DNA of 42,054 nt from a virus (taxonomy: Duplodnaviria; Heunggongvirae; Uroviricota; Caudoviricetes): IMG/VR virus record IMGVR_UViG_2609459819_000001, positions 1 through 42,054 of that record; one strand, given 5' to 3'. Below are positions 3,247 to 34,549 of this stretch, piece after piece. The number at the start of each line of letters is the position of its first letter. Position 1 is the stretch's first letter. The translations under genes and the position numbers were made by a program. A model generated the notes under the pieces. That model saw only the letters and a list, made by a program, of their open reading frames with translations, did no database searches and was not told the origin of the DNA.

Positions 3247-3345
3247 TCACCACCAGCGTATAGCGCTAATAACGCTTGACAGACCGAATAAAAAGAACAC
3301 GGCCCAGATGAGGAAGAATTTCCAGTTGGGTAGTTTTTCGCCCAT
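3247..3345 (-). CDS. 32-aa hydrophobic small ORF (MGEKLPNWKFFLIWAVFFLFGLSSVISAIRWW)
   Basis: Manually translated; GGGAG about 9 nt upstream of ATG; one predicted TM helix; below the ORF-track length cut-off. Confidence 0.2.
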   Translation of the reverse strand: MGEKLPNWKFFLIWAVFFLFGLSSVISAIRWW

Positions 3346-3424
3346 GACTCGCAACTCCCGTATCAGTTTGCTAAAATTAATCACATATTCTCCCTTGCTA
3401 TCCTCAAGGTGCAGAAAGTAAAAA

Positions 3425-3471: not shown

Positions 3472-4212
3472 TTAATTAGGCGCGGTAGTATTCCCGCTGC
3501 CATTCTGCACACCGCCATGGGTATGCTGGATGAGGCTCTTACCTCCAGCCTTCACATCGTTAGTCACCGTCACCGGCCCAAGCATCGTCGCAGTACCGCC
3601 ACTTTCGCCCATTCCCTGAGACAGATTGCCATTAATCGTTACGTTGCCGTTCAGCGTGATAGTCGGGGATGTGATTGTCGTTCCACCTTCAGCCGTAGCC
3701 GTGAGCTGGCCCGGTGTTTGAACGGTGATGTTATGTCCTGCGGCAACCTCTACGAACGCCGCACCATCATCGGTTCGCAGCTGCGCGGCGCTGGTACTGA
3801 TACCGCTGATTTTCTGTGCTTGCGACTGCGGGCCAACGATGGCGAACGCATCAGATAAGTCATGCTGTCGCGGATCGACGGTCTCCTGAACGCCGCCGCT
3901 CTGCCACCAGAAATCGATGCAACGGTCGGCAAAGATCAGCAGGCACTCGTCGCCTTCTTTTACCGGAAAGGTCAGCGTGCAACCGCCGCCGCGCGGGAAG
4001 ATAACCGGCACATCCACCAGCGGTTTTAATTCGGTGGAGCCATCGCCAACAATACCGCGAAGCGCTACCTCTACTGTGCAGGTAACAGTGTCAGGATCGA
4101 ACGACTGAATGATGCCGGGCATCGCTACGCGCATCTGGGTAGACACCGAATCGGCAATGGCCTGCGCGGTCTGCTGCTCACCGCCGATCTGTGATTGAGT
4201 TGTGATTGGCAT
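3472..4212 (-). CDS. Baseplate central spike protein (gpV / Mu gp45-like)
   Basis: 246-aa ORF; Gly/Thr-rich C-terminus ending LIQHTHGGVQNGSGNTTAPN; position between hub and W-like genes; GGGGG 4 nt upstream of ATG. Confidence 0.5.
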   Translation of the reverse strand: MPITTQSQIGGEQQTAQAIADSVSTQMRVAMPGIIQSFDPDTVTCTVEVALRGIVGDGSTELKPLVDVPVIFPRGGGCTLTFPVKEGDECLLIFADRCIDFWWQSGGVQETVDPRQHDLSDAFAIVGPQSQAQKISGISTSAAQLRTDDGAAFVEVAAGHNITVQTPGQLTATAEGGTTITSPTITLNGNVTINGNLSQGMGESGGTATMLGPVTVTNDVKAGGKSLIQHTHGGVQNGSGNTTAPN

Positions 4213-4223
4213 AAAACCCCCAT

Positions 4224-4247
4224 AAAAAAACCAGCCGAAGCTGGTTT
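4224..4247 (-). terminator. Hairpin with T7 run on minus strand (ACCAGC-ttcg-GCTGGT then TTTTTTT)
   Basis: Stem 4230-4235/4240-4245; lies 12 nt upstream of the V-like start, so probably a cargo-gene terminator read through in the late transcript. Confidence 0.4.
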
Positions 4248-4434
4248 GGTATCAATTATCTCTTAGTAACTAAGCTACATCAGTGTGAAGTAAGGCTTTT
4301 CCGCTGCAATGGCACACATTCACAAGGTGTATTAGGATATGTTTGCAACAAGTAAGCATTGAAAATCAATTTCAGCCATGAAGCCGCCATAGAGTGGACC
4401 TGCACCATCGCATTATTGACTACAGGAGTAACAA

Positions 4435-4725
4435 ATGGGATTTAGATTTCGTAAAAGAATCCGGATTGCGCCCGGACTCGCGATCAACATTAGTAAAAGC
4501 GGAGTAAGCACTTCAATTGGTGGTAAAGGTTCCACCATTAACATCGGGAAAAAAGGCGTAAAGATGACAAATGGCCTTCCCGGCACGGGGCTGTCGCATA
4601 CCACTAACCTTTACTCTCCCGGGAAATCGACAGAAAAAAAACAACTTACTCATAAGCAAAAAATAATTAGAAACATCCTGTTCGTAATTATTGTGTTTAT
4701 TATAATTAAAGCTCAATATTTTTGA
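4435..4725 (+). CDS. DUF4236-like small protein with C-terminal TM helix
   Basis: 96-aa ORF on opposite strand to tail genes; N-terminus MGFRFRKRIRIAPGLAINISKSGVSTSIGGKG recalled as the DUF4236 signature; AGGAG 7 nt upstream; AT-rich. Confidence 0.5.
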   Translation: MGFRFRKRIRIAPGLAINISKSGVSTSIGGKGSTINIGKKGVKMTNGLPGTGLSHTTNLYSPGKSTEKKQLTHKQKIIRNILFVIIVFIIIKAQYF

Positions 4726-4730
4726 CGCAT

Positions 4731-4760
4731 GCCCGCCTATCTGGCGGGCTATTTTACTTT
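4731..4760 (+). terminator. Intrinsic terminator after the DUF4236-like gene
   Basis: GCCCGCC-tatct-GGCGGGC stem (4731-4749) followed by TATTTTACTTTT. Confidence 0.5.
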
Positions 4761-5639
4761 TCGGCAGTCGTATGTTGCATACTGACGCGGCGCATTCATG
4801 CTGGCTTGCAGCCACTGGGCATTGAGAATAGCTTTTCCGTTGCGCTTGATGTACTCAAGCCCAACCCAGCGGCCGGGTTGATTAGTGGCAGCCATCCACT
4901 CCATCTTGATGTTATCCGGTTCCCCTTTGGTGCTACCACCAGAGCCGATTGGGCTAATTTTTTGCGTCTCTGGTTTTGCGCCATTAATTCTGGCCCAACC
5001 ATCAGCAGAAGACAGATCAATCGTATAAGGACCACAGACTGTTTTGTAATTCACGCCAAGCTTTTCGTTACTGTGAACATTACTACTTTTCTCGTAATCA
5101 GCCTTGGCTACGTCGTTCATTTTTTGATAGATGGCAGGTTGCTTCAGCGATAACTCATTTAGCTGTTTTACAAAATTTTCTCGTGAAACCTCTGCAAGCC
5201 CCATGGGTTTTCTATCAATGATATAATCATCATAAATCTTTAATACAACAGCCGAAGAAGAAAGTTTCTTAGCTAAATCATTTACAAAATTGAGATAATT
5301 TAGCTGAGAATTATCTCTTACATCGATAGCCCTAACTCCACCTGTGCCGTACTCATGATATGCAGCATAAAAAGCTGGTATATTCTCCGGCTTTTTATTG
5401 ATTGCCTTAATCAACCCGTCAGGACCACAGATCTCGCCACTCCAGTCAATTAGTGACTTCCCTTTAGATTTCCATGTCTGACAATCATCTGTCGATAAAA
5501 TTACTATCGGCTGCCATCCTGGACGTCTTTTGTACTCAGCGTTCTGCGCGGAATTAAAGCCTGCACTCGCGCCCCCGGATAAGAGCAACCCGGAAAGAAA
5601 AAGTGCGCTATATCGAATTCCGTTCTTATTTGTACCCAC
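4749..5639 (-). CDS. Secreted protein of unknown function (Sec-type signal peptide); cargo gene inside the baseplate cluster
   Basis: 296-aa ORF; GTG start 1 nt after hub stop with AGGAGG 7 nt upstream; N-terminus has basic n-region, hydrophobic LFLSGLLLSGGASAGF and ASA/AQNA cleavage-like motif; AT-rich. Confidence 0.5.
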   Translation of the reverse strand: MGTNKNGIRYSALFLSGLLLSGGASAGFNSAQNAEYKRRPGWQPIVILSTDDCQTWKSKGKSLIDWSGEICGPDGLIKAINKKPENIPAFYAAYHEYGTGGVRAIDVRDNSQLNYLNFVNDLAKKLSSSAVVLKIYDDYIIDRKPMGLAEVSRENFVKQLNELSLKQPAIYQKMNDVAKADYEKSSNVHSNEKLGVNYKTVCGPYTIDLSSADGWARINGAKPETQKISPIGSGGSTKGEPDNIKMEWMAATNQPGRWVGLEYIKRNGKAILNAQWLQASMNAPRQYATYDCRKVK

Positions 5640-6707
5640 TTAATTTCCTCCTGAGCGAGCTATAGTCGACTGGCTAATCAGGTCACGAGCCCCACGCGCA
5701 AAACACATCAAATCCATGTACCACGCCTGACCTCTGGTGTCGCCAGTATAGTCGATAGCTTTGACGATATAAACGCCATCCGTCGCAATGCTGGCAGCCT
5801 GTGACGTCGTGCCGGTCAGCACACGGTTGCCGTTCTCTTCTGTTTCGGTGATACGCCCGGGCGACTGTGCGATTTCGCTATTGCCGAGCGCGGCGCGGTA
5901 CACCGAAGCCTGATCGAGCTGGATAAGACCATTAATACGGATGTTTGGGTTTATCAGGCACCGCACGTTTACTCCGCCGCCCATCGTTTGTTGCGGCATA
6001 CCGATCAGGCCAGTATCGGCATTCAACACAATGGCTTCGTGAATATATTTATCCTCCGGCACCATCTGGACCTGACCATCCACCAGCTGCCATGTCGCTT
6101 TGCACTGCGCAGCAATATTATCCATCACGTTACGGGTGGATGAATAAATCGCACGGCCACGAGGAAACACGGTATCAGGAAAGTCACCGGTAATGCCCTG
6201 CGTCACGCCGAACGCGTTGAAATCCTGCATAGTCGCCCGGTGCAGGTCCGCAACGGTATAACCAGCGGCAAGCGTGGTGATGGTAGTCGCGTAGAGGAAC
6301 GCTTCGTGGTTACTGATGGCCTGAATCAGCACCCAGGAATCGGTGATGTTGTCCTTCCCGGTGACGGTGAAGCGAATATCACCGTCAAATATCAGGCCGT
6401 AGTTCTGACCGTTCACCTGCCCTACCTGGTCTGGTGAAATCTCCCGGGCGACACCAACCTGGCTCGCATCAACATCCGGCGCAATACCGTCATACCCGGC
6501 AATGATGCGAATTTTTGCAAACTCCTGCCCCAGTATCTTGTTCGTGGTATCGGTCGAAAGGTTGTAAATTTTCACGTTCGCCACTCGCGGCCAGCGTGTA
6601 TCTGCCCACTCGATCTGGAACGTGACCTTAAAATCAGACAGGGAAACGCCCTGCCCGTTCTGGTCCAACAGTTGCAGCTCAAAATGGCGCATCCAGTTAA
6701 GAGACAT
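5640..6707 (-). CDS. Baseplate hub protein (Mu gp44 / P2 gpD-like position)
   Basis: 355-aa ORF two genes downstream of tape measure. Confidence 0.45.
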   Translation of the reverse strand: MSLNWMRHFELQLLDQNGQGVSLSDFKVTFQIEWADTRWPRVANVKIYNLSTDTTNKILGQEFAKIRIIAGYDGIAPDVDASQVGVAREISPDQVGQVNGQNYGLIFDGDIRFTVTGKDNITDSWVLIQAISNHEAFLYATTITTLAAGYTVADLHRATMQDFNAFGVTQGITGDFPDTVFPRGRAIYSSTRNVMDNIAAQCKATWQLVDGQVQMVPEDKYIHEAIVLNADTGLIGMPQQTMGGGVNVRCLINPNIRINGLIQLDQASVYRAALGNSEIAQSPGRITETEENGNRVLTGTTSQAASIATDGVYIVKAIDYTGDTRGQAWYMDLMCFARGARDLISQSTIARSGGN

Positions 6708-7016: not shown

Positions 7017-7619
7017 TCATCCCCCGAATGCTGATGTAACGCTTCCGCCCAGCTGGCTCAGCAAGGATTCGTTTGGCGGTGTAGTGGATTTCATCCCGGA
7101 ATTCTGCACCGCCGATGTGCTGACGCCATCCTGCATATCTGATTTATCTGCAACGCTAACGCTCTGCGTCTGCGACATGATCACTTCACGCAGGGTAAGC
7201 GTGCAGTTCAGCACGTTCTCGCTGGTTTTATCCGTTGTCACCTCGATGGCTCGCACCAGCATATTGCTGTAAACCCGCTTTCCGGTCACTACATCGAACG
7301 GCACCCGAGAGGACTGGAGATCCAGTAGTTGCTGATAGGTCTCTTTCGGGCTAAGTCCGGCGCTGAGGCCGATTGACGATGTATCAATGAAGTCCAGCAA
7401 CGAACCGCCACCAGCGAAGCCGCATTCCATTGTGACTTCGCTGGGGCGCTTATACGCATGATCGGCGATGAAGCCCGAAGCGCTATTCGTTGTTGGCTTC
7501 TCCACCGGGTGCTCAGTAATTTCGAGCGCATCAGAATGCTTTTCGGAGACGACCACGCTGGGGATCAGCAGGCCAATTCGCCGGGATTGCTGGCGAAAAA
7601 TCGCTGATAAAATATCCAT
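7017..7619 (-). CDS. Tail protein (Mu gp43 DNA-circulation position)
   Basis: 200-aa ORF directly after the tape measure gene with overlapping stop/start. Confidence 0.35.
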   Translation of the reverse strand: MDILSAIFRQQSRRIGLLIPSVVVSEKHSDALEITEHPVEKPTTNSASGFIADHAYKRPSEVTMECGFAGGGSLLDFIDTSSIGLSAGLSPKETYQQLLDLQSSRVPFDVVTGKRVYSNMLVRAIEVTTDKTSENVLNCTLTLREVIMSQTQSVSVADKSDMQDGVSTSAVQNSGMKSTTPPNESLLSQLGGSVTSAFGG

Positions 7620-24883: not shown

Positions 24884-25666
24884 TTACCGCGTTATCTGCT
24901 TAAGCTGTTTTTCGGCCCAGGACTCTTCGATATCAAATTTCGTGATCAGCAGGTCGTAGAATGGCTTAACAGACTTTTTCCAGGTGTCCAGGCTAATGGC
25001 GTCAGTAATCTGGCATACAGCAGCATAGGCTTCAGTCGACGGAAGTCGTTCATACCCACGCCCTCCGCAGCGCTTACAGTCAGCCAGAACAGGAACGCCC
25101 TGTTTCTCAGTAAGAGCCTGGTTCACTGCCTTGCCGCGCCCATGGCAATCACTGCAAGAAGCACTAACCACACCAGAGCCATTACACTTTTTGCATAGCA
25201 CTTTGATGGATTCTTTGACCTTCACCATCCCGGACACGGTCATTTTCCCTTCTGGCTTACGGAATTTATTGGTAAACACGTCAGCCTCAATGAAGCCCTG
25301 ACCGTCACAACAATCGCACTGCTTCACGCTGGCAGCGCTGCGGGAATAGTCCTCAAAAGCGAAGGTGGCCAACTGGTGCATCACCTGAGGTTTAACCGCG
25401 GCACCGAGCTTACGCAGTGCGGCAACCTTGTCGCATTTTGTCATCGCGTACTCAGCCAGCAGACCGATCGCCCGATCCCGGTCGTTATTGCTTATGCCCA
25501 TCTTGCCGAGGAAGGCGCTGTAACCCATTGCGGCGCGTTCCTGCGTCATGCCCATGGCAGCCATTATGTCGGTACCGGTCAGTGAATCGGAGGCGGTAGC
25601 GCGCGGAGAATCGCTAATCAGTGTGGATTTAGCGAAGTGGTATTTCACTGTGTTTTCAAGGTTCAT
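24884..25666 (-). CDS. Q: Late-gene antiterminator Q (lambda Q family)
   Basis: N-terminal SDSPRATASDSLTGTDIMAAMGM and C-terminal TWKKSVKPFYDLL closely resemble lambda Q as recalled; multiple CxxC zinc motifs. Confidence 0.85.
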   Translation of the reverse strand: MNLENTVKYHFAKSTLISDSPRATASDSLTGTDIMAAMGMTQERAAMGYSAFLGKMGISNNDRDRAIGLLAEYAMTKCDKVAALRKLGAAVKPQVMHQLATFAFEDYSRSAASVKQCDCCDGQGFIEADVFTNKFRKPEGKMTVSGMVKVKESIKVLCKKCNGSGVVSASCSDCHGRGKAVNQALTEKQGVPVLADCKRCGGRGYERLPSTEAYAAVCQITDAISLDTWKKSVKPFYDLLITKFDIEESWAEKQLKQITR

Positions 25667-32264: not shown

Positions 32265-32804
32265 TCATATAACCCCCAGCATAATCTGCACCATTTCCAT
32301 CAACGGACCGGTTAACCCAGGGTCAACGCGATACATCTCCACGATCCCCTCGCTCAACTCTTTCAGCTTCTGATGACGTGGCGCATCCATTGCGACAGCA
32401 ATCTTCGCTTCGCTGGTTTCCTTCCCCAGCCTTGCCAGACGAGCCATTACGTTGTCTTCTGGTAGCAGACGATTGCGGTATTCAATCGGCAGGACAGCGA
32501 GGATTGCCGGCGTCAGCTGGCGAACGTTTTCGCGGTACCGTTCGCTGTTGAAATGGTTATCCAGAAAGCGGAAAAGCTTCTGACGCTGTCGGCTGAGGTC
32601 ATCAGGGAAAGTGATCTCGTCTCCCCCTTGAGCCTGGTACTCTTCGATGATCAGAGCAGAAACGACATCCTGACCATCTACACCCGCCCACGCACGAACG
32701 GCATCGCGGATCTGGTCATGTTTATCTACCGAGACAGGTTGATTGCGATTTATCATCGCAGCCGTTTGATATCCGCTATTTTGATGAAGTGATAGTGACT
32801 GCAT
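32265..32804 (-). CDS. cII-position regulatory protein (YdaT-like?)
   Basis: 179-aa ORF directly downstream of cro-like gene; YdaT-like assignment by position (Rac ydaS-ydaT arrangement), low certainty. Confidence 0.35.
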   Translation of the reverse strand: MQSLSLHQNSGYQTAAMINRNQPVSVDKHDQIRDAVRAWAGVDGQDVVSALIIEEYQAQGGDEITFPDDLSRQRQKLFRFLDNHFNSERYRENVRQLTPAILAVLPIEYRNRLLPEDNVMARLARLGKETSEAKIAVAMDAPRHQKLKELSEGIVEMYRVDPGLTGPLMEMVQIMLGVI

Positions 32805-32806
32805 GG

Positions 32807-33040
32807 TTATGCCCTCGCTTCCTGAGCCGGTAATCCATCCGTAGGGTTGAGGTACAAATCAGGGCGTAACTCATGTGGAGTTACACCTGTAGCATTGAAA
32901 ATAGGAATGACACGGTTAGCCGGTACGAATCCATTGTCACGGTGACGCCAGTGACTGACCGTCATTGGGGATACATTGAGCTTTTCTGCTAAACGGGTTG
33001 CACCCCCTACGATGCATATTGCTTTATCAAGTGCTTTCAT
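32807..33040 (-). CDS. cro: Cro-like HTH regulator (YdaS/Cro family)
   Basis: 77 aa from internal ATG 33040 (MKALDKAICIVGGATRLAEKLNVSPMTVSHW...); GGAG 6 nt upstream; divergent from the repressor gene. Confidence 0.55.
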   Translation of the reverse strand: MKALDKAICIVGGATRLAEKLNVSPMTVSHWRHRDNGFVPANRVIPIFNATGVTPHELRPDLYLNPTDGLPAQEARA

Positions 33041-33067
33041 ATTTGGCTCCAAGTAATAACGAACCAA

Positions 33068-33096
33068 ATTAAACATTATGTTTATGTTCAAGTCAA
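33068..33096 (-). promoter_or_regulatory. pR-like promoter (TTGACT-17 nt-TTTAAT)
   Basis: -35 at 33096..33091, -10 at 33073..33068 on minus strand; operator palindrome in the spacer. Confidence 0.5.
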
Positions 33097-33111
33097 CATT
33101 ATGAATGTTGA
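33070..33111. promoter_or_regulatory. OR-like operators: palindromes TAAACATTATGTTTA (33070-33084) and TCAACATTATGAATGTTGA (33093-33111)
   Basis: Two perfect palindromes sharing AACATTATG in the 103-bp cro/repressor intergenic region, overlapping the pR -10/-35. Confidence 0.5.
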
Positions 33112-33135
33112 GGCGATAAACTTTTAGTTTAGAAT
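33108..33135 (+). promoter_or_regulatory. pRM-like promoter for the repressor (TTGAGG-16 nt-TAGAAT), near-leaderless transcript
   Basis: -10 ends 8 nt before the repressor ATG (33144); no SD present. Confidence 0.35.
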
Positions 33136-33143
33136 CTTGATAT

Positions 33144-33539
33144 ATGAGAAAAAACACACACCAAACAGATAACCCGCAGGTTCGGCGGTTAAATGAAATC
33201 ATCGAGAAGAAGCGCATATCCAAAGCGGATATAGCGAGAATCTGTGGTGTGAGCGCACAATCAGTCAACAACTGGTTTGTCAGAGGAGCGATAGGAAAAA
33301 GCTCAGCAATAAAACTTGCCGATGCGCTAGGCGTAAGTCTTGAGTGGGTTCTAGGTCAGGACGTGGATGCTAAGAACGGTTTGAGACACGACGAACGGAG
33401 ACTGTTGGAACTCTATAATCAACTCCCAAACGAAGAAGAACAACAGAACATGTTGCGGATCGTATCTCTACGGTTGAAAGAACTCGATGAACTGTACGCC
33501 AAGTACATGGGACGGCGGATTAAGGGCGATGCCGAGTAA
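33144..33539 (+). CDS. Phage repressor, HTH XRE family (cI-like but without peptidase S24 domain)
   Basis: 131-aa ORF divergent from cro; HTH-like region ISKADIARICGVSAQSVNNW; no Ala-Gly / Ser-Lys autocleavage region visible. Confidence 0.6.
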   Translation: MRKNTHQTDNPQVRRLNEIIEKKRISKADIARICGVSAQSVNNWFVRGAIGKSSAIKLADALGVSLEWVLGQDVDAKNGLRHDERRLLELYNQLPNEEEQQNMLRIVSLRLKELDELYAKYMGRRIKGDAE

Positions 33540-33584
33540 CGAGCCGCTGGTGCCCAGGAAGCATGGGTAGACAGGGATAAAATC

Positions 33585-33683
33585 ATGAGAATTGGTATAG
33601 TGTTTCCGATCTTGGTGTTCATCGTAGCTATGGGGTTTATGGCATGGTTTATCATCGATGGATACGCAACACCCAGCGGCTAA
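33585..33683 (+). CDS. 32-aa hydrophobic peptide (MRIGIVFPILVFIVAMGFMAWFIIDGYATPSG)
   Basis: Manually translated; AGGGA 7 nt upstream; single TM helix; immediately downstream of repressor. Confidence 0.25.
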   Translation: MRIGIVFPILVFIVAMGFMAWFIIDGYATPSG

Positions 33684-33795
33684 TTCGCAGTTCCACCGGT
33701 TGATAGCTTATAACAAATTATAGTAGTTGAAGGTGAAACAGATCGGGTATCTTCTGATATAACAATGAAACATTTTGTCTATAGATAGCATAGCT

Positions 33796-33816
33796 TGCAA
33801 CTAGATTTCAGTTGCA
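33796..33816. promoter_or_regulatory. Inverted repeat TGCAACT-N7-AGTTGCA upstream of hicA (candidate HicB operator)
   Basis: Perfect 7-bp arms, about 28 nt upstream of hicA start. Confidence 0.3.
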
Positions 33817-33843
33817 CTACCTTTAACAGAGGATGTATCCTTC

Positions 33844-34098
33844 GTGGGAAGAAAGGAAAAGCTAAAGTCAAAGTTAGACGGCTTACCCAAAAATTTTACT
33901 TGGGATGAGTTCGTTACTCTCATGAACCAGTATGGCTTCAAGCTTTTGAATGCTAAACGAGGTTCTGGTCGTAAATTTTACAACCAACGTGTTGATAGAT
34001 TGGTCATTTTTCATGAGCCTCATCCTGAAAACACCCTCAAAAGGTACGTCTTGGAAGAAGTTAAACAGCTGTTAGATGAGATTGATGATCATGAATAA
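33844..34098 (+). CDS. hicA: HicA-family toxin (YcfA-like mRNA interferase)
   Basis: 84-aa ORF with GF..L...KRGSGRKF...FHEPHP pattern resembling HicA; directly upstream of a HicB-like gene; GTG start. Confidence 0.5.
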   Translation: MGRKEKLKSKLDGLPKNFTWDEFVTLMNQYGFKLLNAKRGSGRKFYNQRVDRLVIFHEPHPENTLKRYVLEEVKQLLDEIDDHE

Positions 34099-34102
34099 CT
34101 TG

Positions 34103-34549
34103 ATGAAATACAAAGGTTACTATGGTAGCTCCAGCATTTCATTTGAAGATGGGGTGATGCATGGAAAACTCGAATGTATAAATGATCTCGTCACTTATGA
34201 GGGTGCAACGGTTGCAGAACTCCGTGCAGCCTTTGAGGAGGCCGTGGACGATTACCTCTCCACTTGTGAAGAGATAGGAAAATCTCCAGATAAGACAATG
34301 AGTGGTTCGTTTAACATCCGGATAGGTGAATCCCTGCATAAAAAAGCATATTTAGCTGCTAAAGCTAAGAATATGACTTTAAACGATTATGTAAAACAGG
34401 CTGTCAGTGAGTCAGTTAATGGGAAAAAAGAGGTTCACTACCACTTTGAAAAACCGAGGGATGTTAGAGAAGTTACTTTCTTCTCATCCCGTAGACGTAC
34501 AGAAGAGACCTATTGGGAAGTTTCAGTAGACAACGGAGTGCCACATTGA
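34103..34549 (+). CDS. hicB: HicB-family antitoxin (HicB fold + C-terminal RHH-like region)
   Basis: MKYKGYYGSSSISFEDGVMHGKLECINDLVTYEGATVAELRAAFEEAVDDYLSTCEEIGKSP...FNIRIGESLHKKA matches the HicB pattern. Confidence 0.65.
   Translation: MKYKGYYGSSSISFEDGVMHGKLECINDLVTYEGATVAELRAAFEEAVDDYLSTCEEIGKSPDKTMSGSFNIRIGESLHKKAYLAAKAKNMTLNDYVKQAVSESVNGKKEVHYHFEKPRDVREVTFFSSRRRTEETYWEVSVDNGVPH

Follow-up and report, generated by a model that had tools for sequence, protein, structure and literature searches.

The interval between the baseplate hub and spike genes of the virus record IMGVR_UViG_2609459819_000001 is a conserved accessory-gene slot and not a private insert. In the window, by which we mean the whole 42,054-nucleotide stretch of DNA that was analyzed, this slot occupies positions 4213 to 5639, between the hub stop codon and the spike ATG, and contains the gene for a 296-amino-acid (aa) exported protein, a convergent 96-aa DUF4236 gene, and two terminators. 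Across related loci, the first position in the slot, abutting the hub stop, is almost always taken by an exported beta-barrel gene, and the second position holds free cargo. We read the slot in the window as the filling of a moron hotspot within the E217/PhiTE-type contractile tail module of a lambdoid, Q-antiterminated prophage, and we give this reading, together with the manner of working proposed for it below, about an even chance of being right. The slot cargo is probably an envelope-located binder that would be made by the prophage and serve in superinfection exclusion.

A conserved slot between the hub and spike genes

The slot, its boundaries, and its contents comprise the following features (window coordinates).

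3472 to 4212, minus strand: gpV-type baseplate spike gene, the downstream slot boundary
4224 to 4247, minus strand: intrinsic terminator closing the slot (hairpin and T7, from scan and fold)
4248 to 4434, plus strand: non-coding 5' part of the DUF4236 cassette, the presumed promoter region
4435 to 4725, plus strand: 96-aa DUF4236 gene (Pfam PF14020), convergent with the tail operon, product with a hydrophobic anchor at its C-terminus
4731 to 4749, plus strand: intrinsic terminator of the DUF4236 gene (T-rich tail after a 7-bp all-GC stem with a 5-nt loop)
4749 to 5639, minus strand: open reading frame (ORF) for the 296-aa exported two-domain protein, the long form of the PHROG 3443 family
4752 to 5045, minus strand: C-terminal beta-barrel domain, residues 199 to 296, with the conserved Cys pair C202/C292
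5082 to 5543, minus strand: N-terminal all-alpha domain, residues ~33 to 186, with two conserved Cys (C53 and C71)
5562 to 5639, minus strand: putative signal peptide, residues 1 to 26, predicted cleavage after A-S-A (residues 24 to 26)
5640 to 6707, minus strand: baseplate hub gene (PHROG 196, E 8.8e-85), the upstream slot boundary
5745 to 5773, minus strand: candidate sigma-70 promoter (TTTATA, 17 nt, TATACT) in the hub 3' end

Every feature listed in a first-pass annotation of this DNA was found where that annotation had placed it. The description of the cargo as AT-rich was borne out by a GC content of 0.43 in the slot versus 0.54 in the 1.5-kb flanks; a base composition unlike that of the surrounding genes is one mark of a moron. 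The tail itself had been called Mu-like. Pfam instead assigns it to the E217/Pam3/PhiTE type, and we dropped the picture of a Mu-like tail with an anomalous insert in favor of a module with a standing slot. The spike gene matched the Pfam spike N-terminal domain (E 1e-41) and Apex motif (E 3.8e-07), and the hub scored 26 bits against E217_GP41, slightly under the cut-off.

The annotation had also proposed a comparison with relatives, and this placed limits on the exchanged DNA. Homology with relatives carrying other cargo stops on the spike side at 4230 to 4245 and restarts at 5664 to 5692, within the final hub codons. We surveyed 141 related hub-spike loci, of which 136 were occupied and 5 were empty, and GC content was below that of the flanks in all 136 occupied slots (median difference, -0.11). 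Thus, the 1.4-kb insert described earlier is indeed present, but it is one filling of a slot occupied in nearly all relatives and not private to this virus. The empty slots (L061, L062, L063, L066, and L070) belong to distant relatives with hubs 46 to 49% identical, and in them only 37 to 57 nt separate hub and spike, such that the genes flanking the slot are neighbors in related phages, as expected around a moron. These five loci imply that the slot cargo is dispensable for the tail, which upholds the earlier claim that it is accessory cargo and not tail structure. The text on the E217 virion structure (PMC10329688) makes no mention of the ORF lying between hub gp41 and tip gp43.

Even where relatives share at least 94% hub identity, slot content differed. 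The exported beta-barrel C-terminal domain, which belongs to the PHROG 3443 family, was detected directly after the hub stop in at least 122 of the 141 loci. In nearly all loci, genes of this barrel family (cluster 0) have their start between -8 and +12 nt relative to the hub stop. All are on the tail strand, and N-termini resembling signal peptides were seen in 118 of the 125. Some slots have a 240-aa lipoprotein at the hub-adjacent position, and one Serratia slot contains seven tandem paralogues of the barrel family. In place of DUF4236, other slots carry Phd/Doc or T5orf172/MUG113 genes, and we observed a borderline EACC1 match; such co-cargo is of a conflict type. The order hub, barrel, convergent DUF4236, spike also recurs in the cultured Klebsiella phage RCIP0034. 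The arrangement in the window is more than chance, as the low GC content and the pre-spike terminator return across the occupied slots of relatives.

DUF4236 is a self-contained cassette

The convergent gene had been described as DUF4236-like and as having a Shine-Dalgarno site and a terminator of its own; all three elements were recovered. The 96-aa protein matches DUF4236 (PF14020) with an E value of 1.8e-20 and 73.6 bits against a cut-off of 27, passing the gathering threshold, with residues 3 to 55 aligned to profile positions 1 to 54 of 55. It is thus a member of a Pfam family that is uncharacterized, and a literature search on DUF4236 returned unrelated work only. Nine PHROGs match the protein, their common part being the N-terminal ~60 aa only; the C-terminus is the hydrophobic tail. 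The gene has an AGGAG Shine-Dalgarno site, and its terminator at 4731 to 4749 folds at -16.7 kcal/mol (z -3.2); on the minus strand, the same sequence forms a hairpin and has no T-run.

DUF4236 occurs in 24 of the 141 slots, and the 19 ORFs called for it all run antisense to the tail genes. Comparison with loci L079 and L003 to L006 put the cassette boundaries at ~4236 and ~4764, with the non-coding 5' part traveling along. DUF4236 is therefore a self-contained cassette that is gained and lost independently. A scan of the region upstream of the gene gave no strong sigma-70 match, and since this region is near-identical in all carriers, its conservation is uninformative regarding a promoter.

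The 296-aa protein and its family

The first gene of the slot was found as described in the first-pass annotation: a 296-codon ORF whose GTG start (5637 to 5639) abuts the hub stop (5640 to 5642), with an AGGAGG Shine-Dalgarno site 7 nt upstream. We found 21 full-length homologue clusters at 43 to 98% identity, including homologues that take up this place in Dickeya solani and in prophages from metagenomes, and the abutment of hub stop and barrel-gene start is kept down to ~50% identity (Dickeya). Residues 198 to 296 match positions 21 to 114 of the 115-position profile of PHROG 3443 (E 8.5e-35), an uncharacterized family without a Pfam assignment. Compared with that profile, the protein in the window adds a 170-aa alpha domain. 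The conserved unit is the C-terminal third, and the N-terminal 170 aa are an add-on in 16 of 141 loci, making the window copy the rarer long form, composed of a signal peptide, a novel alpha-helical domain, and the barrel.

Members of the barrel family range from 111 to 299 aa. Among loci sharing at least 94% hub identity, they have a median identity of 70%, compared to 90 to 98% for most structural proteins and ~80% for the tape-measure protein (TMP). The family is narrow, with 61 clusters among 1.84 billion representatives, and hardly occurs outside this tail module; one distant member sits on a chromosome and not in a prophage. One locus, L001, carries a pseudogene of the long form in an otherwise intact module.

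Searches of Pfam, NCBIfam, PADLOC, and the PDB gave no functional annotation. For both window proteins and for slot proteins of relatives, Pfam returned DUF4236 and nothing further. It yielded no match to the 296-aa protein at E 0.01 and no consistent match for 53 family members at E values up to 10, and sequence searches of the PDB with two profiles produced nothing significant. Both window proteins and four slot proteins of relatives were without a match in PADLOC, as were the window proteins and the slot proteins of relatives in NCBIfam. Literature searches did not find the RefSeq accessions of the slot proteins, and a poorly targeted one did not find virion proteomics for SEN34-type phages. 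Avidins and unrelated barrels outscore MliC/PliC for the C-terminal domain; as modeled, the barrel fold is generic and points to no particular ligand.

The N-terminus of the 296-aa protein had been read as a Sec-type signal peptide. Heuristically, it has the expected parts: in MGTNKNGIRYSALFLSGLLLSGGASA, followed by GF beyond the cleavage point, we recognized a charged n-region (K5 and R9), a hydrophobic h-region (SALFLSGLLLSGG), and an A-S-A cleavage motif at residues 24 to 26. In the predicted structure, pLDDT is low for residues 1 to 32. The lipobox pattern [LVI][ASTVI][GAS]-Cys is absent from the window protein, which has L-S-G-G; the lipobox Cys of its homologues is a Gly in this allele (codon 5571 to 5573), and we therefore discarded the idea that it is a lipoprotein processed by signal peptidase II. 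A Cys stands at this column in 18 of 20 other full-length homologues, in lipoboxes reading L-S-G-C, V-A-G-C, or V-T-G-C. P0001 has Gly and P0007 has Tyr instead; P0010 lacks part of its N-terminus in the alignment. Among the surveyed loci, (S/A/T)GC is found in 13 of 16 long forms. By these motifs, the long-form norm is a lipoprotein, and the window allele is an exception. Given the loss of the lipobox Cys, the Sec-type signal peptide holds for the window allele only and fails as a family trait, and the window protein would differ in localization from the family norm and could be impaired. The Gly allele is nonetheless common (P0001 comprises 81 member sequences, and L077 and L078 carry Gly too), and it gains a good A-S-A site for signal peptidase I, pointing to a change toward a soluble product and not to inactivation.

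Transcription signals around the exported-protein gene

A candidate sigma-70 promoter lies in the hub 3' end, ~100 nt upstream of the exported-protein start. It matches the consensus at 9 of 12 positions, a score that is not significant alone, as chance gives as many in the region. We also considered codon constraint in 66 de-replicated hubs adjoining occupied slots. Thr321, encoded by ACT in 92% and located inside the -10 hexamer, is the most codon-constrained hub position of at least 3-fold degeneracy; Gly311 ranks 2nd and Val312 5th, and Tyr313 is TAT in 94%. Synonymous constraint in the hub is thus at its strongest over the two hexamers. Windowed synonymous diversity shows dips of similar depth elsewhere in the hub. 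The hexamer TATACT is present in 111 of the 136 occupied loci and TTTATA in 112 of 136, and neither occurs in the five empty-slot loci, whose hubs are also the most divergent and amount to only ~4 independent ones. From these patterns, we infer that a candidate promoter may be embedded in the hub coding sequence.

The hairpin and T7 run reported just before the spike start were present at 4224 to 4247, 15 nt before the spike ATG (4212), so the slot, like the DUF4236 gene on the plus strand, has a terminator of its own, as morons do. A pre-spike hairpin with a T-run was found in 123 of the 136 occupied slots, in 122 of these 123 at 15 to 25 nt upstream of the ATG. The 40 stem/loop variants all preserve pairing, with compensatory changes in the stem, and the terminator is missing from four of the five empty slots. 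Rfam searches of the slot gave sub-threshold matches only (isrK, STnc130, and Trp leader), driven by the terminators. The annotation had supposed read-through of the pre-spike terminator by Q-modified polymerase. A Q antiterminator gene (PF03589) was found in the window at 24884 to 25666, and its presence makes such read-through plausible.

Proposed working of the slot and alternative explanations

The first-pass annotation had named lysogenic conversion, superinfection exclusion, and receptor modification as candidate roles. We propose that, in the lysogen, the weak candidate promoter in the hub 3' coding sequence would transcribe the exported-protein gene, and that this transcript would be halted by the terminator ahead of the spike gene. 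During lytic growth, Q-modified polymerase coming from the late promoter would pass through both gene and terminator. Judging from sequence, the 296-aa product would be exported by Sec and, in the window allele, signal peptidase I would cut it after ASA26 and leave it free in the periplasm, whereas most homologues would be lipid-anchored, probably in the outer membrane, given that no Asp follows the Cys. One disulfide may stabilize each domain. The avidin/calycin-like barrel would act as a binder, either masking an envelope component used in entry or engaging the incoming tail tip, and so could exclude superinfecting phages of the same tail type and possibly spare progeny from debris. The DUF4236 protein would be a separate membrane-anchored accessory factor, also expressed from the prophage. 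Taken this way, the slot holds a prophage moron of an ordinary kind that probably serves to block other phages.

That the barrel gene starts right at the hub stop is just as compatible with expression that is late only and coupled to the hub. In that case, the exported barrel would depend on translational coupling to the hub, be produced only alongside the tail genes, and play no part in the lysogen. It would act at or after lysis, perhaps covering the receptor on debris or helping to break down the envelope. This we consider unlikely. In its favor, the barrel start stays within the narrow range around the hub stop noted above and always in tail-operon orientation, the hub-adjacent position is conserved to ~50% identity, the family is tied to this tail type, and the independent promoter is a 9/12 candidate only. 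However, a purely late gene in a Q-antiterminated operon needs no conserved terminator, such as the one that is missing from four of the five empty slots; synonymous constraint on promoter-like hub hexamers would likewise be superfluous, and neighboring cargo is of a lysogen-expressed type, such as toxin-antitoxin modules. That the gene encodes a virion or assembly component, namely a tail-tip accessory or chaperone needed by the tail, with a hydrophobic N-terminus that is not a signal peptide, is very improbable. Its fixed place within the baseplate cluster, shared by at least 122 of 141 relatives, would suit such a role, but unlike a structural protein of an E217/Pam3-type baseplate it is absent from five relatives, and lipoboxes or A-X-A sites occur throughout the family. 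Moreover, its forms are highly variable (111 to 299 aa, tandem arrays, a 240-aa lipoprotein in some slots), the barrel evolves much faster than structural proteins, and pseudogenized copies sit in otherwise intact modules (L001).

The exported barrel might instead serve the host. Located in the periplasm or anchored in the outer membrane, it would inhibit peptidoglycan hydrolases (MliC/PliC/PhiA-like) or protect as some other kind of binder, and would raise the resistance of the lysogen to lysozyme, type VI secretion system amidases, or serum, and not to phage. On present evidence, we do not count it among the PliC, MliC, or Brucella PhiA periplasmic inhibitors, as no Pfam match, even a weak one, to MliC/PliC appeared in the 53 members or the window protein and avidin-type and unrelated barrels scored higher. 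A family so narrow (61 clusters) and nearly restricted to one tail module is also unexpected for a general host-fitness factor, and we regard host-directed conversion as improbable. Marginally less probable still is that the long-form gene of the window is decaying or neutral filler, impaired by the loss of its lipobox Cys and kept by linkage only. The Gly in place of the acylated Cys and the pseudogene of the same long form in L001 are consistent with decay, but the reading frame is intact over 296 codons, and the Gly allele is both common and furnished with a good signal peptidase I site.

A more novel reading is that the PHROG 3443 barrel blocks entry in a tail-type-specific manner and confers homotypic exclusion on lysogens, a proposal we offer tentatively and think rather unlikely as it stands. 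Such a barrel would recognize the E217/PhiTE-type tip (spike, hub, or SLT-bearing tape measure) or an envelope component that this tip needs. It could diversify through its variable N-terminal half, through tandem paralogue arrays, and through addition of the alpha domain and lipid anchor, and it would constitute a new superinfection-exclusion family, hard-wired to the tail module that it targets, with its promoter hidden in the hub gene. In a comparison with ten tail-protein segments, co-variation of the barrel stood out for none (Spearman 0.34 to 0.65) and was lowest for the TMP SLT domain (Spearman 0.34) and the spike C-terminus.

Implications

The barrel family occurs in E. coli, Salmonella, Klebsiella, Citrobacter, Serratia, Dickeya, Pantoea, and Yersinia. 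If the barrel blocks phage entry, it would amount to an exclusion system that is widespread among Enterobacterales prophages and has so far had no name, with relevance to host range in phage therapy; if the family is neutral or purely late-acting, the slot would be an ordinary prophage moron. The slot is a ready hunting ground for new accessory and defense genes, recognizable by the signature of hub stop, cargo, hairpin with T-run, and spike ATG. A promoter under synonymous-site selection within a structural gene would further exemplify how morons can be wired into late operons.

Comparison with known systems

The Spackle protein (Sp) of T4 is a helical periplasmic inhibitor of the gp5 tail lysozyme. 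Like Spackle, the window protein has a putative signal peptide and is predicted to be periplasmic, and the TMP of this module carries an SLT lytic transglycosylase domain, which makes it a plausible analogue of Spackle's target. The analogy would be functional only; unlike Spackle, the window domain is a beta-barrel, and it shows no specific co-variation with SLT.

Llp of T5 and Cor of T1, phi80, N15, and HK022 are outer-membrane lipoproteins that act as exclusion factors, and for T5 Llp, the proposed role is to mask the receptor on debris and thereby save progeny. The slot protein resembles these in being a small exported or lipidated phage protein, encoded near tail and receptor-binding genes, that could block phages of the same type. 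It differs from them in being larger and two-domained, in that the window allele is no lipoprotein, and in that no sequence relationship was detected, the sole PHROG match being the unannotated 3443.

The morons of lambdoid phages, such as lambda lom and bor and HK97 gp15, are promoter-gene-terminator units located between late genes and expressed from the prophage. Like these, the slot lies between genes that are adjacent in some relatives, is AT-rich relative to its flanks, is closed by a terminator within a Q-antiterminated late operon, and encodes envelope proteins, with content swapped between close relatives. Unlike the sporadic lambdoid morons, it is fixed in place, occupied in 136 of 141 relatives, and home to one resident family; its candidate promoter lies within the upstream structural gene, and its first gene directly abuts the hub stop.

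Genes and signals between the hub and spike genes

The hub-spike interval of the window (4213-5639) is flanked by the genes for a baseplate hub (PHROG 196, E 8.8e-85; 5640-6707, minus strand) and a gpV-type spike (3472-4212, minus strand), within a tail module that as a whole is of the E217 gp41/Pam3 gp18/Dit-like/DUF2612/Baseplate_J type and whose tape-measure protein (TMP) contains a lytic transglycosylase (SLT) domain. The prophage is lambdoid overall, with O/P replication genes, a Q late antiterminator, holin, endolysin, RecET and integrase. Its early region (32265-34549) holds further genes of accessory or toxin-antitoxin type, identified with Pfam as YdaS/YdaT-like genes and a HicB-family antitoxin gene. 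The features needed here are the following.

4749-5639, minus strand: exported-protein ORF, 296 aa; GTG directly after the hub stop codon, AGGAGG 7 nt upstream
4435-4725, plus strand: DUF4236 ORF, 96 aa; Pfam DUF4236, E 1.8e-20; AGGAG ribosome-binding site, hydrophobic C-terminal tail
4731-4749, plus strand: strong terminator after the DUF4236 ORF
4224-4247, minus strand: hairpin with T7 run, 15 nt before the spike ATG
24884-25666: Q antiterminator

The first-pass annotation had proposed a secreted-protein gene abutting the hub stop, a convergent DUF4236-like gene with its own ribosome-binding site and terminator, a hairpin with a T-run before the spike start, and an AT-rich composition, all of which were borne out. 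The N-terminus of the 296-aa protein has the n/h/c layout of a Sec-type signal peptide (read from the sequence, with the break between MGTNKNGIRYSALFLSGLLLSGGASA and GF), and GC content is 0.37 to 0.48 within the interval versus 0.52 to 0.60 outside it in the window.

A conserved slot with variable content

Loci with a hub alignment were taken from species-representative genomes and viral contigs, hub and spike were placed by tblastn, and the 141 loci with both slot ends definable were retained. The slots measured 37 to 5001 nt. In five loci, from Buttiauxella, Rouxiella and Dryocola (hubs 46 to 49% identical), the slot is empty (37 to 57 nt), and the slot genes are therefore dispensable for building this tail. 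Each of the 136 occupied slots has a lower GC content than the 3 kb of flanking tail genes (median difference, -0.11). E. coli relatives sharing at least 94% hub identity each carry one to three hub-spike genes, but gene content differs. DNA comparison with relatives carrying other cargo set the breakpoints at 4230-4245 (spike side) and, within the last hub codons, at 5664-5692 (hub side). Of the insert that had been claimed, the accessory content stands, given the five empty-slot relatives, but its being private does not, since 136 of 141 relatives have the slot occupied. At the sequence level, these comparisons show the interval to be accessory DNA in a conserved, terminator-closed slot rather than a private insert.

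Of the 136 occupied slots, 123 have a perfect GC-rich hairpin and T-run shortly before the spike ATG, the distance being 15 to 25 nt in 122 of them. Because the slot terminators comprise 40 distinct stem/loop sequences (e.g., CCAGC/GCTGG, CCCGC/GCGGG and AGCCGC/GCGGCT), stem pairing is maintained through compensatory change. The hairpin is missing from four of the five empty slots; the 57-nt slot of a Rouxiella sp. (L063) retains the hairpin and a T7 run directly before the spike ATG, so that the terminator either arrived ahead of any cargo or outlasted cargo since lost. At 4222-4307 (minus strand), Rfam gave sub-threshold matches to isrK (23 bits, gathering score 50) and STnc130 (26 bits, gathering score 55). 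Inspection of the STnc130 alignment showed that it spans the terminator hairpin and its A/T run, and the isrK match stops at the same terminator; both are probably not meaningful.

The first gene encodes a fast-evolving exported protein

Clustering of all slot ORFs produced one dominant cluster, found in 119 loci, and tblastn with its C-domain (E 1e-5) detected it in 122 of 141. These barrel genes are invariably on the tail strand and start -8 to +12 nt from the hub stop, and 118 of the 125 genes in the cluster have signal-peptide-like N-termini. The usual form, of 110 to 122 aa, consists of a signal peptide and an ~95-aa domain with conserved Cys near both ends. This domain makes up residues 199-296 of the window protein (62 to 64% identity to short forms; PHROG 3443, E 8.5e-35), preceded by a 170-aa domain that occurs in only 16 of 141 loci. 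Full-length homologues range down to 43% identity and also abut the hub stop in Dickeya solani and a metagenomic prophage. A profile search of 1.84 billion representatives returned only 61 clusters at E ≤0.001, and all source names of family members are "hypothetical" or "secreted protein".

Searches of Pfam, NCBIfam, PADLOC and PDB sequences with the barrel protein found no match. In the full-length model (pLDDT 74), residues 33-186 form an all-alpha N-domain of high confidence (pLDDT 80-97), followed by a beta C-domain; modelled separately from 53 sequences, the C-domain reached pLDDT 85 and pTM 0.76. Foldseek against the PDB gave no match at E ≤0.001, the top, non-significant match being Brucella PhiA, and a structure search with the alpha domain was without match. 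The fold thus points to a small exported binder but is no more informative than that.

Between pairs with hubs at least 94% identical, median barrel identity is 70%, versus 90 to 98% for Dit, plug, hub, spike N-domain, sheath initiator, J and wedge, and variability peaks in the signal peptide and first barrel strands. Spearman correlations of pairwise distances between the barrel protein and ten tail-protein segments were all 0.34 to 0.65, with the TMP SLT domain and spike C-terminus at the bottom of this range, and thus indicate no specific partner. The spike C-terminal half (window 3472-3820) and the SLT-bearing C-terminal part of the TMP (7619-8280) are mosaic: among loci with at least 94% hub identity, the 10th percentile of identity is 29% for the former and 36% for the latter, and both are therefore exchanged as modules. 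On this sequence evidence, the barrel family of which the first slot gene is a member is exported, fast-evolving, uncharacterised and tied to the tail module.

The 5001-nt slot of Serratia aquatilis (NZ_CP173186.1; L044 6000-12100) has seven tandem barrel paralogues, one truncated to 75 aa, in an array broken by a 402-aa reverse-strand ORF resembling an IS transposase; such a seven-copy expansion is typical of arms-race genes. E. coli SY3626 (L001 3010-3900) carries a long-form copy annotated as an N-terminally incomplete pseudogene, although the rest of the tail module is intact, consistent with the long-form gene being dispensable. A distant 112-aa member (P0133, profile E 8e-9) has a chromosomal setting (L160 4001-4339), where its neighbours are a Tsx channel, YoaK, a LysR regulator and UbiD, with no phage genes nearby; this copy may be domesticated or ancestral.

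In 18 of the 20 further full-length homologues from the databases, and in 13 of the 16 long forms among the surveyed loci, the signal peptide ends in a lipobox (L-S-G-C, V-A-G-C or V-T-G-C; the residue following the Cys is not Asp). Gly occupies the Cys position in the window, in loci L077 and L078 and in a database cluster of 81 sequences (P0001), and there an A-S-A signal peptidase I site remains. The window codon (5571-5573) is GGC, and the close alleles L079 to L081 have TGC, a single-base switch. The Gly codon has presumably switched a lipoprotein to a soluble periplasmic form, and we infer that this allele is periplasmic whereas Cys alleles are outer-membrane-anchored.

The second position holds exchangeable cargo

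The DUF4236 cassette spans about 4236-4764 and is independent of the first gene: one locus (L079) has the 296-aa gene at 97% identity with other cargo behind it, and in another (L002) the same cassette accompanies a short barrel gene. By tblastn, 24 of the 141 slots contain DUF4236, and each of the 19 such ORFs called in the clustering lies antisense to the tail genes. By this distribution, the second slot gene is an independently mobile DUF4236 cassette. The cultured Klebsiella phage RCIP0034 (OR532828; L157 3441-4121) has the order hub, barrel, convergent DUF4236, spike, with the barrel gene overlapping the hub stop (ATGA) and identities of 36% for the barrel protein and 62% for DUF4236. Since this phage is of a different lineage, the pairing recurs beyond the E. 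coli group. The cargo of other slots includes toxin-antitoxin genes (Phd/Doc), T5orf172/MUG113, a borderline EACC1 protein, additional proteins with signal peptides, and membrane proteins; such accessory and conflict genes are what prophages usually carry.

A small accessory ORF also lies between the spike and the sheath initiator (3247-3384, minus strand). It encodes 45 aa from a GTG start, with one hydrophobic segment, and is preceded by a hairpin and T5 run directly after the spike stop. Salmonella phage SEN34 has an ORF of the same size (SEN34_23), and the related loci L001, L002, L004 and L005 lack it, the spike there abutting the initiator.

A candidate promoter inside the hub gene

Upstream of the first gene, a single promoter-like site is present on the minus strand: TTTATA, 17 nt, TATACT at 5773-5745 (hub codons 312-322). 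It agrees with the consensus at 9 of 12 positions, as many as chance would give in this region. A set of 66 hubs, de-replicated at 96% nucleotide identity, was used to rank residues with at least 3-fold degeneracy by codon constraint. Thr321, within TATACT, was the most constrained such residue of the whole gene (ACT in 92%); in or beside the -35-like hexamer, Gly311 ranked 2nd and Val312 5th, and Tyr313 is TAT in 94%. TATACT occurs in 111 and TTTATA in 112 of 136 occupied loci, and neither occurs in any of the 5 empty-slot loci, whose hubs are also the most divergent. The codon data support nucleotide-level selection at exactly the two hexamers and are not proof of a promoter; a smoothed diversity profile dips as deep elsewhere in the hub.

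Discussion

In the lysogen, transcription would start from the candidate promoter inside the hub gene, and Q-independent transcripts from the slot or just upstream would end before the spike. During lytic growth, Q-modified polymerase would read through the slot, and late transcription would pass the pre-spike terminator, the genome having a Q gene. The barrel protein may act as a binder, shutting out superinfecting phage of the same entry type. The chief reason to propose a tail-related target, and not a general contribution to host fitness, is that the family occurs almost exclusively with the tail module.

A structural role for the barrel protein is very unlikely because the family has export signals and empty slots exist. 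The text of the E217 paper describes the hub gp41 and the tip gp43 as virion parts and never mentions gp42 (PMC10329688), a hint that a non-structural ORF at the hub-tip junction is old. We consider it unlikely that the barrel protein has a purely late function, more doubtful still that it is a PliC/MliC-like hydrolase inhibitor, and slightly less probable again that the window allele is decaying. We favour an exported binder with a tail-related target.

Moron hotspots with envelope proteins are well known, as in lambda (lom, bor), HK97 (gp15) and the T5/T1-type lipoproteins, and the slot described here is of the same kind. Specific to it are the fixed frame, a resident family without a characterised member, the two-domain long form and a candidate promoter inside a structural gene.
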